From: Candidatus Altimarinota bacterium
Lineage (GTDB): Bacteria > Patescibacteriota > Gracilibacteria > BD1-5 > UBA6164
Assembly (NCBI GenBank): GCA_034112165.1
Contig: JAWUVV010000052.1
Span: 1 to 53,320 of the forward strand
Reading direction: 5' to 3'
Length of the DNA: 53,320 bases
This document shows, in pieces, positions 5,137-49,526 of this stretch. The number at the start of each line of letters is the position of its first letter. Position 1 is the first letter of the stretch. Position numbers and translations under genes: made by a program. Under the pieces are notes generated by a model that saw only the letters and a list, made by a program, of their open reading frames with translations, was not told where the DNA came from and made no database searches.

Positions 5137-5143
5137 AAAAGAC

Positions 5144-5191
5144 CGATAATAAAGTAGGGAACGCAGATCTGCGTTCCCTACTTTATTATCG
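5144..5191. terminator. 48-nt perfect palindrome (24-bp arms, AGATCT centre) downstream of pilC
   Basis: CGATAATAAAGTAGGGAACGCAGA|TCTGCGTTCCCTACTTTATTATCG was checked base by base. The arm GTTCCCTACTTTA is repeated once more directly at 5191-5204, followed by CCGGTCTC. Confidence 0.6.
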
Positions 5192-5226
5192 TTCCCTACT
5201 TTAATTACCGGTCTCAGTTTTTAAGC

Positions 5227-23955: not shown

Positions 23956-24353
23956 AGATTGTTTTATATATATACTAGATATAAAATAACATATATTTTA
24001 ATATTTATCAAAAATAGAGGGAGTTTTATATATTTATTTTTTAACATCGCGTCTCTATCTATAGTAATATATATTAAATTAAAAGAATAGTAGTAATAGT
24101 AATAGCCATTGTTAAAAAATATGAAGCCATTAAATAGCTATTTTCTAAAAGTATTTATTCACAATATGAATATGTAATTATCTTAAAATTAAGACAGAGC
24201 TAAGGTTTAGATGTAAGTTTTATACAGTTTTTTAACATATGTTTTAAAACGAGTTTTATTTGCTTTTAATGCATAAAACGTAAAATAAAAAATGTGAAAC
24301 ATATAAATATATATATGAGTCATAAATTAAATTTGTAATAAAAATGTTAGAAA

Positions 24354-29610: not shown

Positions 29611-31002
29611 ATGAAAATAGCATTTTTTGGAACTCCAGAGTTTGCTTGAGAGATACTCTCATGAATCCTCTCCCTCAATCCCTCTCCAAGAGAGGGAAGT
29701 AGCTTCATAGATATAGCTCTTGTTGTTTCACAGCCAGATAAACCAATAGGAAGAAAGAGAGAACTCCTTCCAACTCCAGTCAGGCAAGTCTCTCTTGACG
29801 CTGGAATACAGGTGATGCAGCCAGATAAAATTAAGAGAAACACTCAGTTTCATGATAGTCTCAGAGATTTAAATTTAGACTTTATTGTCGTAGTAGCATA
29901 TTGAAAAATTATTCCACAAGCTATTTTAGATATTCCAAAGCATGGCTGTGTAAATATTCATGGGAGTATCCTTCCAAAATATCGAGGAGCAAGTCCAGTA
30001 CAGGCAGCAATAAAGTCTGGAGACAGTGAGACATGATTGACAACAATGTATATGTCTGCTGGCATGGATGAATGAGATATCCTTAAAATAGCCAGAGTTG
30101 AGATAGACAATATGGACACGAGTGAAGATATATTCAAAAAATTTGTACACATTGGACCTGAGCTCTTAGTAGAGACTCTCAGAGAAATTATGTCGGGAGA
30201 TTTACAGTGAACTCCTCAAGATAACTCTAAGTCTACAAAATGTGGAAAAATTTCTCGCGAAGATGGAGAAGTGTTTTTTGCTCAGCAGAGTTCAGGAGAA
30301 ATATATAATACTTTTAGAGCCTATACTCCTTGGCCTGGAATTTATACTTGGTATGATGGAAAGAGATTGGTGCTTGAAGAAATATCTTCTTACATAAAAC
30401 CTCACCTCTGAATTTCCTCTCCTCAAGGAGAGGAGGGCTACAGTATAAGGCAATGATATGCAGTCGTTCCTGAATATGTAAAAGAACTTTCTAAAAACCT
30501 GCGCCTAGATCAAACAGATTCTGAGGAAATAGCTTGGGAACTGCTGCGAAATAGAAAATTTCATAATTTAAATTTTCGTCGACAGCATGCTATTGGTAGA
30601 TACATTGCTGATTTTTATTGTGATGAAAAAAAGATTGTCATTGAATTAGATGGAAAAGTTCATGAAAATAGGAAAGAATATGATGAAATACGAGATGAAT
30701 CCATTTCTTCTCATAATATTCATGTTATTCGTATTCCCAATGAAGATATCGGAAAAATATATCAAATTATTTATACAAAATTATGTAGCCTCTCTCTCCT
30801 CTGAGGAGAGAGAATTCAAGAGTGAGGTTTTGTGTGAGAACTATGAGAATTCATCAAGCTCTCAAAAAACAGATATGGAATAATATGCGCTCACAATAAA
30901 ATTCTCGAGATTACGCGGGTAAAACTCGAGGGAAAGAAATCTATGGATGTTACGTCATTTGTGAATGGGAATAGAGAGGTAGTTTGATATTGTTTTCAAT
31001 AA
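29611..31002 (+). CDS. fmt: Methionyl-tRNA formyltransferase carrying two in-frame element insertions (463 aa vs ~310 typical)
   Basis: [38 protein letters not shown] and YTPWPGIYT motifs. The C-terminal domain resumes after the insert ([37 protein letters not shown]). Every codon from 29611 to 31002 was checked, and the only stop is TAA at 31000. Confidence 0.85.
29662..29703 (+). repeat. Solo GC-rich hairpin element (left-end type) in frame in the fmt N-terminus
   Basis: TGAATCCTCTCC...TCCCTCTC-CAA-GAGAGGGA. It encodes [12 protein letters not shown]. The GTP-to-QPD spacing is about 9 aa longer than in E. coli Fmt. Confidence 0.5.
30400..30827 (+). mobile_element. TIR/hairpin-bounded element carrying a DUF559 (Vsr-like PD-(D/E)XK) endonuclease module, in frame within fmt
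   Basis: - Left end: CCTCACCTCTGAATTTCCTCTCCTCAAGGAGAGGAGGGCT.
- Reverse complement of the right end: CCTCACTCTTGAATTCTCTCTCCTCAGAGGAGAGAGAGGCT, about 80% identical over ~40 nt; each end contains a hairpin.
- Interior: [73 protein letters not shown]. Confidence 0.6.
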
Positions 31003-31154
31003 AAAAAGAATCCCGAGGGCTGAAGAGGAACTTTTTAAGAAAGAACAGGAATGACATAAATATTCTACACCATACATATATATATTAGTCAAATATAAAT
31101 TGTGTTTGTAAAGCTTGAATTATGAGAGAATGTTGCTAGAATAGCGAATAATAA

Positions 31155-31249
31155 CTCTTACCTGAATCCTTACTCTTTACAAGAGCAAGGGGCTACAAAG
31201 TATACATACAGCCTCTTTCCCTTGAAAAGGGAGAGAATTCAAGAGAGAG
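31155..31249 (+). mobile_element. Miniature ORF-less copy of the same element (left and right ends separated by 6 nt)
   Basis: CTCTTACCTGAATCCTTACTCTTTACAAGAGCAAGGGGCTACAAAGTATA + ACATAC + AGCCTCTTTCCCTTGAAAAGGGAGAGAATTCAAGAGAGAG. It ends 3 nt before the ATG at 31253. Confidence 0.55.
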
Positions 31250-31252
31250 TTT

Positions 31253-32041
31253 ATGAATAAATATCATAACCCCCATACTATGCTGAATATTGCTAAGAAT
31301 ACCTTTAAGGAGATAGTGAGGAATAGATTTTTGTATCTGATCCTGTTTTTTGCCTTTGTATTTATAATTTTTTCTCTGGCCCTAGGAAAACTGACTATAG
31401 GAGAATCTGAAAAAGTTATTGTAGATTTTGGTCTTGGGATGATAGAGATATTTGGACTGATATGAGTTCTATTTGTCGGGAGTCAGTTACTATTTAAGGA
31501 GATAGAAGGAAAAACTATCTTTCTTATTCTTTCTAAACCTATCAAAAGGCAGGATTTCATCCTTGGGAAGTTCTTTGGATTTTCAGGGACTATATTTTTA
31601 ATAGTATTATTACAATCTATATTATATATCATAGTTTTACTACTGAGTTGAATTCCAGTAACAGGGCTTATACTTTGGGCTCTTTTATTTACATACTTTA
31701 AATTAGAAATATTATTAGCTATAGTATTCTTCTTTTCAACCTTCATGAGTAATATCATGACTATTATGATCAGTCTTATGGTATATCTCATTTCTCATAG
31801 TATGTCACTTTTATTAGACTTACTTTATAGAACAGGGCAAGAATCTTTAGCTCAGGCTGGGAGAATCTTCCAACTTTTATTTCCTCCTATGCAAGCATTA
31901 AATATTAAGGATGTTATTGGGAGCTTTACTGAATTTAGTTTAAAATTTTTTATGTTTAATAGTTTTTACGCAGCTATGTATATACTGATAATTCTTTTCT
32001 TCACAGTACAGATATTCTCGCGTAAAACTTTTGAAGACTAA
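31253..32041 (+). CDS. ABC-2-type transporter permease-like membrane protein (262 aa)
   Basis: Six hydrophobic segments with an ABC-2/NosY-like layout. No adjacent ATPase gene. Two in-frame TGA. Confidence 0.55.
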
Positions 32042-44742: not shown

Positions 44743-45021
44743 ATGATAGAAATTTCAACATTAGAACTTCTGCAGCTTGTAGCTACCTTTTTCCTTATTG
44801 TCATCGGGACACTTCTTAGTCTTGCACTTTTGAAACTCAATAAAATTCTGAAAATGTGAGTTGAGCTCGTAGGCTACTATGAAAATATGAAACAATTAAT
44901 TATCTATTATTCTATGGTCCCGTATGTTATCAAGGATAAAATATTTGAATTTATAGCAAACCTCTCCGAATCCTCTCCTCAAGGAGAGGTGGAATCACAA
45001 GAAAGTTCTACTGAAAAGTAG
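44743..45021 (+). CDS. Small membrane protein (92 aa) with hairpin-element-derived C-terminus
   Basis: One TM helix (LVATFFLIVIGTLLSLALL). The C-terminal ..NLSESSPQGEVESQ.. is encoded by the repeat at 44961-44992. Confidence 0.45.
44961..44992 (+). repeat. Solo left-end-type hairpin element
   Basis: CCTCTCCGAATCCTCTCCTCAAGGAGAGGTGG. Compare the fmt element's left end, CCTCACCTCTGAATTTCCTCTCCTCAAGGAGAGGAGG. Confidence 0.5.
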
Positions 45022-45077: not shown

Positions 45078-46958
45078 ATGTCTCAAAAAATAATTACACT
45101 TTCGAAACAACTTGCCAACCAAATAGCAGCTGGGGAGGTTGTGGAGCGACCACTCTCAGTAGTGAAAGAGCTAGTAGAGAACTCACTTGATGCTGGAGCT
45201 ACAAAGCTCGAGATTTATTTAAAAAATGGTGGAATTGATGAGATTATCGTAAAAGATAATGGTCAGTGAATTCCTTGAGATCAATTGATCCTGGCTCTTG
45301 AGAAATACTCAACTTCAAAAATTCAAAGTATAGAGGACCTATATAAAGTGATGACTTTTGGTTTCAGGGGAGAGGCTCTTGCGAGTATTGCCTCAGTGAG
45401 TGAGTTTTCTATTAGTTCAAAAACTGCTGATTGTAAAAATGCCAAGCAAGTGATAAGTGAGGGAGGAGAAAATATTTCTGAGCAAATAATAGCCCATGAA
45501 ATAGGGACAAGCGTTAAAGTATCAAAATTGTTTTTTAATACTCCAGCAAGACTTGCGTACCTGAAAAAACCGAGAACGGAGTATCTTAAAATTCAAGAAT
45601 TTATTCAAAAAATAGCACTTATTTATCCAAATGTATGACTGAGCTTACATCATGATGATAAAGGAGTCTATAATTTCCCAGTAGGACAAAGTATCCAGGA
45701 ACGTATTTATGAGATATTTGGAGGAGAGTTTTCAGAAAATATGAGAATACTTTCTCACGAATTCTCATGAATAAAGGTTTCTTGATATATTACAGACCCT
45801 AAAATTTCTTTTAAAAATAAAAATCGGCAACTCTTATATGTAAATAAGAGAGTCATATGATCTCCTATGATTTCAAAGGCTATTTATGATGCGTATAATA
45901 GGTTTATTCCTCATGGAAACCAACCTGGATATATTCTCTCTATTGATATTGATCCAACTCAGGTTGATGTCAATGTGCATCCAAGAAAAATGGAAGTGAG
46001 ATTTGCGTGAGAAGCAACAATATTTCGATCTGTATATCATGGTATCAAGGATGAACTTGAAAGAGTGAGCTTAGTAGGTAATCCCCTAGTTTCTGTAAGC
46101 CCTCACTCTTGAATTCTCTCTCCCTTGGGGGAGAAAGAGGCTGCAAAAGAAACTCCCCTCTCCTCCAAAGGAGAGGGGCTGGGGGTGAGGGAGCAGTATT
46201 ATACAGGTTCATGAACTAAATTTAAAAATTATTCTCCCTATAAAAATACGGGTAGTAATCCATCGCAGGCTTCTATAGATTTTAGTAGAGAAATACTAGG
46301 GAATAACAATGCAGCTTCATCTCTCCTGGCAGGAGAGAATTGAGAGAGGTCTTATCAGGAAAACACTGGAAGTAATCTCTGAGACCTACGAGAGACACCA
46401 CTATGACGAATAGTAGGACAGGTTCATAACTCATACATAGTAGTTCAAACAGATACTGGTCTACAGATACTTGATCAACATGCTCTCGCAGAGCGCGTTA
46501 TATATGAGAAACTCGCAAATGCTTCTTATGCTCCACAAATCCAATGACTTCTATGAGGGATTGGAATGCATCTCATAGTAAATGAGTTAGAGGTGCTTGA
46601 AACATATTTGCAAGATTTTGAAAATATGGGTTTTGAAATCGAGATACTTTCAAATAGTAATATATTGATATCTAGTATTCCTGATTTTATGTCAGGGCAA
46701 AATATAGAAAAATCTTTTCAAAAAATACTATCAGATATCTCATGAGTGTGATCTACATGACTGGAAGAAATTCGTCATAAAATATGGGCGTATACCGCGT
46801 GTCGCTCAGCTGTTAAGTTTTGAGACTCACTGAGTATATTTGAAATAAATAAACTCTTACATGATGCAGCTATAGACTACAGCGCGACATGTCCACATGG
46901 ACGACCTGTTGTGTATGACATAAGCTTAGAAGAATTATTAGGAAAATATGAGAGGTAA
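45078..46958 (+). CDS. mutL: DNA mismatch repair protein MutL (626 aa) with element insertion in the linker
   Basis: [37 protein letters not shown], and the C-terminal [11 protein letters not shown] and ACRSAVKF[TGA]D motifs. Confidence 0.9.
46100..46191. mobile_element. Miniature hairpin element in frame in the mutL inter-domain linker
   Basis: CCCTCACTCTTGAATTCTCTCTCCCTTGGGGGAGAAAGAGGCT ... CCCCTCTCCTCCAAAGGAGAGGGGCTGGGGGTGAGGG. The first 23 nt are identical to the reverse complement of the fmt element's right end. It encodes [31 protein letters not shown]. Confidence 0.55.
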
Positions 46959-49352: not shown

Positions 49353-49397
49353 CACTCACCCCCAGCCCCTCTCTTTACACGAGAAGGGAGCAGGCTA
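49353..49397. repeat. Solo GC-rich hairpin element just upstream of the pilin operon
   Basis: CACTCACCCCCAGCCCCTCTCTTTACACGAGAAGGGAGCAGGCTAC. CTCACCCCCAGCCCC is the reverse complement of GGGGCTGGGGGTGAG in the mutL copy. Confidence 0.45.
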
Positions 49398-49526
49398 CTA
49401 AAATATTATATTTAGTATAACAGGTTTTTTCTCTATATGCGAAAACTAATAGTTGACATATATATATATATAATGGATAGAATATTTTTACAAAAATATA
49501 AACAAAAACTCTAAAAGGAGAAGATA

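Follow-up and report, generated by a model that had tools for sequence, protein, structure and literature searches.

A 99-nt inverted pair of hairpin arms in a Gracilibacteria permease leader, and the association of such arms with DUF559 nuclease genes

The fmt/ABC-2 locus

The present analysis concerns a 99-nucleotide (nt) sequence situated between fmt and an ABC-2 family permease gene of a Candidatus Altimarinota bacterium (assembly GCA_034112165.1, contig JAWUVV010000052.1, positions 1 to 53,320), the whole analysed stretch of 53,320 nt being called here the window. The sequence, which we call a doublet, carries no open reading frame (ORF) and is built of two mutually inverted hairpin arms separated by a 12-nt spacer; arms of the same kind bracket genes of the DUF559 family, one of which is nested in frame in the neighbouring fmt. 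The GC content of the window is 33%, and the relatives of its proteins are named Candidatus Gracilibacteria. Comparison loci are designated with L-numbers; among them L001, L003 and L005 come from close Gracilibacteria relatives (identity of the ABC-2 protein to that of the window 88-89% for L001/L003 and 86% for L005), while L027 represents another species (MAG-1076). The locus comprises the following features.

29611 to 31002, plus strand: fmt (methionyl-tRNA formyltransferase), a frame of 463 codons that also takes in the nested DUF559 element and a solo arm in its N-terminal part
30396 to 30831, plus strand: full-length element in fmt, read through in frame (TGA being a sense codon), with left arm 30396-30442, DUF559 domain 30459-30783 and right arm 30784-30831
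31115 to 31142, plus strand: TTGAAT-16-TAGAAT with TG, a site resembling a promoter for the ABC-2 permease gene and adjoining the doublet upstream; its hexamers are kept in L001, L007 and L027
31153 to 31251, strand not assigned: ORF-less two-arm doublet of 99 nt, with left arm 31153-31197, spacer 31198-31209 and right arm 31210-31251
31280 to 32041, plus strand: coding sequence of the ABC-2 family permease from the conserved start MLNIAKN (homologs of 253 amino acids, aa), with an extra in-frame ATG at 31253

TGA is a sense codon across the window (translation table 25). Use of this table raises the stop-to-stop ORF content (at least 100 aa) from 7,126 to 29,194 residues and, to give one example from fmt, a TGA occupies the position of the conserved Gly in AY-G-KIIP. 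ORF lists of the window prepared with table 11 are badly fragmented.

The left arm of the doublet consists, in order, of a third segment (AACTCTTACC), the linker TGAAT, a hairpin at 31168-31190 (CCTTACTCTT-TAC-AAGAGCAAGG) and GGCTACA, and the right arm of AGCC, a hairpin at 31214-31236 (TCTTTCCCTT-GAA-AAGGGAGAGA), the linker ATTCA and a third segment (AGAGAGAGTT). In both hairpins the 5' stem is rich in pyrimidines and the 3' stem in purines, and the predicted folding energies of the two strands of the doublet are -34.1 and -40.6 kcal/mol, with z of -4.7 and -5.5 in comparison to shuffled sequences. An earlier note on this DNA had pointed to an ORF-less two-ended sequence at 31155-31249 resembling the ends of the fmt insert. 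Such a sequence is present as placed, with its full extent set to 31153-31251, and its alignment to those ends is better than that of shuffled controls: the right half reaches a local score of 42 versus 14.8 ± 2.3 (z = 11.7, shuffle maximum 29, 1000 dinucleotide shuffles), and the left half, weaker when taken alone, a score of 24 versus 14.6 ± 2.4 (z = 3.9, best shuffle 29). The ends of the fmt insert are themselves inverted repeats of one another, of about 52 nt (score 58).

The genes neighbouring fmt and the ABC-2 gene stand in the same order in the relatives, and the syntenic comparison proposed in the earlier note gave three different states of the spacer. In L001, L003 and L005 it reads TAGAATAGCTGAAAATA directly followed by GAATTATTTTTCAACC and is empty where the window has the 99-nt unit. 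L027 carries an 87.5%-identical unit at the same nucleotide junction, which in both genomes lies between TAGAATAGC(T)GAA(A/T)AAT and AACTCT, with the left and right arms swapped; this arrangement is an inversion of the whole element, beyond what recombination between the arms can produce. L007 has a longer composite of several hairpins at the same position of the ABC-2 leader. Since the orthologous site is empty in L001, L003 and L005, the doublet is a genuine insertion, gained after the lineage split from its closest sampled relatives.

Some further observations refer to the same spacer. The composite of L007 (about 2755-2925, some 170 nt) contains three to four hairpins of the family, and gene calling had joined it to the permease as extra N-terminal sequence (P0161, 390 aa). 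The whole fmt/ABC-2 spacer has 278 nt in the window versus 425-645 nt in the relatives, where it appears to hold a small minus-strand ORF that is missing from the window. An AT-rich motif, ATATATATTAGTCAAATATAAAT, occurs three times in the window (31058-31101, 24303-24336 and 49444-49487); it is kept in L001, L007 and L027, where it stands upstream of the ABC-2 promoter, and its minus strand resembles TTGACT-17-TAGAAT.

As the conserved promoter is located directly upstream of the doublet, the latter falls within the first nucleotides of the ABC-2 transcript. The claim that the element forms the 5' leader of the permease gene is borne out by its position between the conserved promoter and the start codon. 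Its right end had been put 3 nt before the permease ATG, and this detail has to be corrected: the end lies 1 nt before the first in-frame ATG (31253), and the conserved start follows at 31280. At the RNA level the doublet would add to this leader a stable stem, predicted at about -34 kcal/mol.

The arm family and the BoxC/PIT/TM repeats

A pattern search for the arms, with the outer parts of the right arm fixed and the rest left free, was directed at a species-representative genome set. More than 107 matches were listed, about 105 of them genuine, and nearly all of these belong to metagenome-assembled genomes (MAGs) of Candidatus Gracilibacteria, one MAG holding at least 20. Four types of copies can be distinguished: solo arms, doublets of two arms, variants in coding regions whose outer pair is CCTCA...TGAGG, and pairs bracketing DUF559. 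The window contains 12 pyrimidine/purine hairpins versus about one expected from shuffles, and 10 of the 12 are members of the family, distributed among the fmt element, the doublet 31153-31251, a doublet in the linker of MutL and four solo arms. Those located outside the two elements already described are listed below.

46100 to 46192, strand not assigned: another doublet without an ORF, placed in frame within the linker of MutL (aa 341-372 of 626); the right half of this doublet, GGAGAGGGGCTGGGGGTGAGGGA, fits the GC-rich consensus of other phyla
46310 to 46349, plus strand: solo arm in right-arm orientation, further along the MutL linker
44960 to 44992, plus strand: solo arm at the 3' end of an ORF for a small membrane protein, the ORF lying upstream of mutL
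49355 to 49398, plus strand: solo arm of the GC-rich type, CTCACCCCC-AG-CCCCTCTC...GAGAAGGG...GGCTAC, by the start of a minus-strand gene
29662 to 29703, plus strand: solo arm in the N-terminal region of fmt, encoding ...LNPSPREGS..., present in the window and L007, absent from L001, L005, L027 and L097

A 24-mer of the MutL doublet was found also in L115, an Armatimonadota locus. This doublet has no stop codon in any of its six frames. Unrelated to the arm family is a near-perfect spacerless palindrome (27+27 nt, 96% complementary) at 5141-5194, between two minus-strand genes.

The pairing within the arms is maintained through sequence change. In a set of 63 distinct right arms, Watson-Crick pairs make up 92-100% at the free positions of the stem, with TA<->CG exchanges, and stem pairing amounts to 0.978 versus at most 0.87 in permuted sets, the kinship of the copies being ignored. 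The third segment covaries with the purine strand (GAGGG/GAGGG, GGGGA/GAGGT, GGGAA/GAGTT); for positions free in the search the fraction compatible with triads (G.G:C, A.A:T, T.A:T) is 0.913 versus 0.778 ± 0.013 after permutation, again with kinship of the copies ignored. Between the window and L097 the proportion of synonymous differences (pS) is 0.20 in arm codons versus 0.54-0.60 in DUF559 or fmt codons, and this low value indicates constraint at the nucleotide level. Most right arms have TGTAGCC or TGCAGCC before the stem, a tag that the GC-rich arms in other phyla lack.

A known RNA family was sought and rejected as the identity of the arms: Rfam at gathering thresholds gave no match in the window or in 18 arm-rich loci, and below the thresholds there were only whalefall-1 matches and miRNA-like noise. 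The whalefall-1 matches fall on the fmt arms at 30790-30829 (plus strand, 21.7 bits) and 30398-30436 (minus strand, 18.2 bits), each in the orientation of the arm, the gathering value being 37; the fmt arms may be distantly akin to this metagenomic hairpin motif.

Repeats of the BoxC/PIT/TM kind have been catalogued since the 1990s, and hundreds of them are present in Microcystis and Neisseria. The link between our arms and these repeats was reached by a literature search with the GC-rich arm sequence. Holder et al. (2015, PMC4666352) describe the TM_ECO motif, earlier named BoxC or PIT (work of Bachellier and of Hoyne), as CCCTCTCCC-loop-GGGAGAGGG-NNN-GGGTGAGGG, with 23 copies in Escherichia coli (E. 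coli) K-12 and inverted pairs at five sites. According to the same paper TM_ECO forms an intrastrand triplex in vitro, none being detectable in vivo, and is tied to local genomic variability, instability, small deletions and rearrangements; its authors found no transposases or integrases near TM motifs, and the words 'endonuclease' and 'DUF559' are missing from their text (PMC4666352). An earlier study, as cited there, ascribes neither promoter nor terminator activity to PIT motifs.

Judged by their sequence, our arms are the AT-rich Gracilibacteria form of this 'intrastrand triplex' repeat. Both have a pyrimidine stem, a loop, a purine stem, a linker of 3-5 nt and a mirror third segment; both are multi-copy and dispersed, often occur in inverted pairs, often contain one conserved stem mismatch and vary locally in presence and absence. 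The GC-rich copies of the window (46154-46192 and 49355-49398) and those of other phyla match the E. coli consensus nearly base for base. The Gracilibacteria arms differ in being AT-shifted (CCTCACC-TCTGAAT-CCTCTCC; CTCTTACC-TGAAT-CCTTACTC), in carrying the inner G(T/C)AGCC tag, in the location of many copies in frame within genes, and in the third segments of the doublets, which are directed outward, whereas those of the E. coli pair #1/#2 are directed inward. The published work is without an associated gene, whereas here the arms bracket DUF559. The kind of repeat is therefore already known, and what is unreported is its AT-rich, partly intragenic form.

DUF559 genes between arms

In fmt the DUF559 domain (Pfam, E = 2.9e-27) splits the Formyl_trans_C domain. 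Among the compared genomes this insertion site forms a series: empty in L001 and L027, with a solo arm in L005, with an ORF-less doublet in L007 and with the full element in the window, L097, L119 and P0001. The fmt of L097 has the same insertion, yet it is the most divergent fmt compared (65.5% identity). The ratio of nonsynonymous to synonymous substitution rates (dN/dS) between the window and L097 is about 0.15 for DUF559 and 0.21 for fmt, and the nuclease is accordingly under purifying selection. The fmt copy is without its own start codon, having ATA where the relative P0001 has ATG. The element is common to distant relatives (L097, L119, P0001) and missing from closer ones.

An intron or intein was considered for the fmt insert and rejected, as the frame reads through the arms and the ORF and the flanking peptides have only about 16 aa; Rfam gave no intron for the window or for the 18 arm-rich loci. 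As read from its frame, the fmt case appears to be an unspliced, intein-less nuclease domain nested in an essential gene. The closest DUF559 relatives are often located mid-protein, where they split host Pfam domains such as the DEAD domain in RecG, TsaD and Eco57I; the proteins are P0245, P0247 (RecG), P0268 (TsaD) and the Eco57I/MmeI-type enzymes P0263/P0286/P0308/P0294. With relatives placed inside such long host proteins, in-frame nesting appears to be widespread.

Residues D51, E62, D64, H68 and D75 are invariant in the DUF559 alignment (A1). For the structural model, a confident one (predicted local distance difference test score, pLDDT, of 86), the nearest structures are 3HRL, itself a DUF559 protein, and the I-Bth0305I catalytic domain, the latter with template-modelling scores of 0.63-0.70; the Foldseek match to 3R3P has E = 3e-4 and scores in this same range; Vsr itself is a weak structural match, and a sequence search of the PDB returned 3HRL solely. 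On the basis of this model DUF559 is predicted to have a Vsr/EDxHD-like PD-(D/E)XK nuclease fold. I-Bth0305I is a homodimer cutting a pseudopalindromic site (PMC3239194). Vsr-style recognition of T:G was rejected for DUF559: 81% of the right arms from Gracilibacteria have T.G at stem position 4, yet this is not general, and the idea was dropped because 103 of the 153 hairpins of the wider family are perfect and the mismatches are of mixed types. In its related fold and in the invasion of conserved housekeeping and repair genes DUF559 resembles Vsr-like/EDxHD homing endonucleases (I-Bth0305I, 'fractured genes'; PMC3239194, PMC2677866). It differs from them in that there is no intron or intein and the ORF together with its arms is translated through in frame, in that the arms are conserved repeats and not host target sequence, and in the genome-wide dispersal of ORF-less copies.

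The presence of arms is not limited to the fmt copy. In the 838 kb of Gracilibacteria DNA (partial genomes) scanned for DUF559 and RayT, inverted hairpin arms flank 12 of the 13 DUF559 ORFs, the divergent arm sequences of L077, L100 and L104 among them, and every ORF found between paired arms in Gracilibacteria loci is a DUF559. Internally deleted DUF559 ORFs (L020 and L069) still lie between arms. An independent sample consisted of 80 metagenome DUF559 loci with 28-69% GC, 71 of which were testable; when the upstream flank was compared with the reverse-complemented downstream one, inverted repeats were obtained with z of at least 5 at 49 loci (69%) and of at least 8 at 39. The consensus of these flanks is CCCTCACCCC-N3-5-CCCCTCTCC-loop-GGAGAGGGG. 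The density of pyrimidine/purine hairpins is 5.5-5.7 per kb up to 150 nt from the ORF ends and 0.45 per kb at 300-700 nt, with none inside the ORF; the richest genome of Holder et al. has about 0.08 per kb (PMC4666352). A hairpin stands upstream of the DUF559 ORF in 81% of loci, downstream in 83% and on both sides in 69%.

Many DUF559 proteins as annotated (P0003, P0005, P0030, P0047, P0054, P0072, P0080) bear at the N or the C terminus tails of which SPLSSEERGRG, SPPAPLPRGEGS and PNPLPQGEGVRGEG are examples. These tails are translated flanking arms, and therefore the gene models probably over-extend into the repeats. The DUF559 family comprises about 20,000 clusters at 50% identity.

The DUF559 gene of E. 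coli K-12, ycjD, has its stop codon in the loop of an arm-type hairpin, and up to 170 nt 3' of the gene there is a partial duplicate of its 3' end followed by copy #9 of BoxC/TM_ECO.

NC_000913.3 1351204-1351760 (L200 2205-2761), E. coli K-12: ycjD with the arm-type hairpin and TM_ECO #9

For 23 copies in 4.64 Mb the chance expectation of such a neighbourhood is about 0.004. The whole ycjD unit is present in 3,346 of the 5,426 complete E. coli genomes, and the fabI-ycjD region is replaced in about 38%. The O157:H7 locus was considered as a clean 'empty site' for ycjD and rejected as uninformative, being a replacement of the unit by TetR/RND efflux genes with no arm at the junction.

RAYT was rejected as the partner enzyme: phmmer with a single E. 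coli RayT query gave no homolog at E ≤ 10 in the 838 kb of Gracilibacteria DNA, versus 13 DUF559 matches. The association of the arms with DUF559, a nuclease under selection, is tight and phylum-wide; beyond Gracilibacteria it extends to many other phyla and to E. coli. A literature search for DUF559 with repeats, hairpins or mobility found nothing relevant, and the BoxC/TM-DUF559 partnership is apparently undescribed, no linking paper having been found in the library searched, with mention outside it being possible.

Class of the doublet and its possible mode of spread

The doublet 31153-31251 is 87-88% identical to the doublets of L017 and L027, and 80-88% to those of five other MAGs; its identity to the fmt arms of the same genome is only 74-77%. 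With such values it was rejected as a deletion product of the fmt copy, and its higher identity to doublets of other species places it in a conserved doublet subfamily, present at many loci, which propagates as a unit. In L015 the same doublet type adjoins a DUF559 gene. No target-site duplication was found at eight doublets, i.e., the window copy, that of L027 and six others.

According to the earlier note, the sequence represents the two termini of the DUF559 element without the nuclease cargo, related to the fmt element as a miniature inverted-repeat transposable element (MITE) is to its autonomous transposon. As an ORF-less two-arm counterpart of the element the doublet agrees with this description, while the derivation from the fmt copy is contradicted by the identities given above, and the MITE relationship fails in the strict sense. 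The doublet does share with MITEs a length below 200 bp, the lack of an ORF, terminal inverted repeats common to a longer ORF-bearing element, a multi-copy state and insertion polymorphism. It differs from them in having no target-site duplication, in its partner ORF, which is no recognised transposase, and in not coming from the neighbouring full copy. The missing duplication together with the PD-(D/E)XK nuclease as partner makes a REPIN-like doublet a better fit than a strict MITE.

In the REP/REPIN-RAYT systems (Bertels & Rainey 2011, PMC3116915; Di Nocera 2013, PMC3733652), as here, singlets occur together with inverted doublets folding into a long hairpin (predicted in our case), the doublet, better conserved than the singlets, is the unit that replicates, one small enzyme gene stands between the repeats and target-site duplications are absent; intragenic copies are found in repair genes, and those in MutL recall the REPs reported from such genes (PMC3733652). 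REP palindromes end on one side in an unpaired GTAG or CGTC, to which the TGTAGCC or TGCAGCC of most right arms may correspond. The difference lies in the flanked gene, here a PD-(D/E)XK DUF559 nuclease and not an HUH-Y1 transposase, and in the third, triplex-type segment of the arms. Because a nuclease alone cannot perform the HUH cut-and-join reaction, the chemistry of movement must differ. Rickettsia palindromic elements (RPE) are without a known associated nuclease, and in contrast to their location in coding sequence the copy described here resides in a 5' leader.

We propose, with a probability of about 0.6, that the doublet is a non-autonomous ORF-less inverted pair, and that the arms and DUF559 constitute one system in which we infer mobilisation by DUF559. 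Such a system would be analogous to REPINs and their RAYT. The nuclease, probably dimeric, would act on the palindromic arms or doublet, either as duplex or as extruded hairpin/triplex DNA, and through its breaks DNA lying between arms would become open to copying or movement with the aid of host repair. Doublets like 31153-31251 would spread in trans by means of nucleases encoded elsewhere, e.g., the fmt copy 330 bp upstream. In a wider form, which we put forward tentatively and at somewhat less than even odds, DUF559 may be the dedicated partner of BoxC/PIT/TM repeats across bacteria, a second REPIN-RAYT-like replicator using PD-(D/E)XK instead of HUH, with doublets spreading in trans and full copies nesting unspliced and in frame in fmt, recG and tsaD.

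Several observations weigh against this proposal. The flanking hairpin is missing on a given side in about 17-19% of DUF559 loci, DUF559 genes are far fewer than solo arms and doublets, and E. coli strains devoid of ycjD retain BoxC copies; therefore the repeats may persist or spread without the nuclease. That DUF559 cuts or moves the arms is a conjecture from indirect evidence, and we know of no PD-(D/E)XK nuclease that carries out transposition alone. The two insertions at the same site (n=2) could mean a fragile site and not targeting by an enzyme. The search for RAYT used one query sequence on partial genomes, and the covariation statistics take no account of relatedness among the copies. 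Neither an in vivo triplex nor mobility genes were seen by Holder et al. (PMC4666352).

The main rival reverses the direction while keeping the partnership of arms and DUF559: the doublets would be homing targets, a DUF559 homing gene would cut the centre of an empty doublet and be copied in by repair with arms of about 45 nt as homology, and the doublets would spread otherwise. We consider this course possible, though rather unlikely. It would suit a fold which among characterised enzymes is closest to I-Bth0305I, a homodimer with a pseudopalindromic site, as well as the position of DUF559, always exactly between two arms; doublets are far commoner than full copies, the spacer of the doublet 31153-31251 keeps the first and last few nucleotides inside full elements (GGCTACA-GTATA...TGT-AGCC), and the in-frame nesting in fmt, RecG, TsaD and restriction-modification enzymes is like homing-gene invasion. 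However, the spread of doublets and solo arms is left unexplained by homing, no other candidate enzyme having been found, and the internally deleted DUF559 copies of L020 and L069 show decay to be a source of ORF-less forms. The arm consensus moreover travels with DUF559 across phyla at 28-69% GC, as it should with arms belonging to the element, although co-conversion of flanks could mimic this.

An origin in host processes only, with no dedicated mobility system, seems to us improbable, and less likely than homing. Repeats would in this case arise through slippage, template switching and illegitimate recombination, and DUF559 would be a domesticated caretaker nuclease, adjacent to them for regulatory or historical reasons. 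Holder et al. (PMC4666352) indeed tie TM_ECO to local instability, small deletions and rearrangements in the lack of mobility genes; one ycjD versus 23 TM copies in E. coli, a situation like that of single-copy RAYTs, the replacement of the fabI-ycjD region and the missing target-site duplication would all be compatible with such an origin. It is, however, hard to obtain by slippage near-identical doublets of 99-105 nt at unrelated loci and in different species, or the inversion of a whole unit at one site, and the precise inverted arm pairs around the ORF in 69% of loci and the nesting of arms and ORF in frame in essential genes look more like invasion than regulation. As to the two halves being ordinary, independent regulatory or terminator hairpins of the fmt/ABC-2 spacer with a coincidental likeness to the fmt insert, an alternative whose terminator form was named already in the earlier note, this reading is refuted, because the orthologous sites are empty and the family is large. 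The strong predicted stems and the A-runs and T-runs beside some intergenic doublets at other loci speak for it; against them stand the alignment (z = 11.7), the lack of a terminator-like site at the doublet, its location downstream of the ABC-2 promoter and not after fmt, the absence of the sequence from the same spacer in three relatives, and more than 100 homologous copies, including in-frame intragenic ones. The inactivity of PIT motifs as promoters or terminators, in the study as cited in PMC4666352, points in the same direction.

If the arms and DUF559 belong together, one explanation would serve both an orphan family of repeats and an orphan family of nucleases, and ycjD with BoxC in E. 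coli is a model-organism pair suitable for direct tests. The proposed system would, if true, be a nuclease-based counterpart to the REPIN-RAYT paradigm, and it would explain where spurious 'PLSPxGEG...' peptides and odd insertions of annotated proteins commonly come from. The ABC-2 permease leader gained a strong predicted stem recently and independently in two lineages. The streamlined genomes of the Candidate Phyla Radiation (CPR) would then be seen to put up with a selfish repeat that is prolific and has entered even fmt and mutL.

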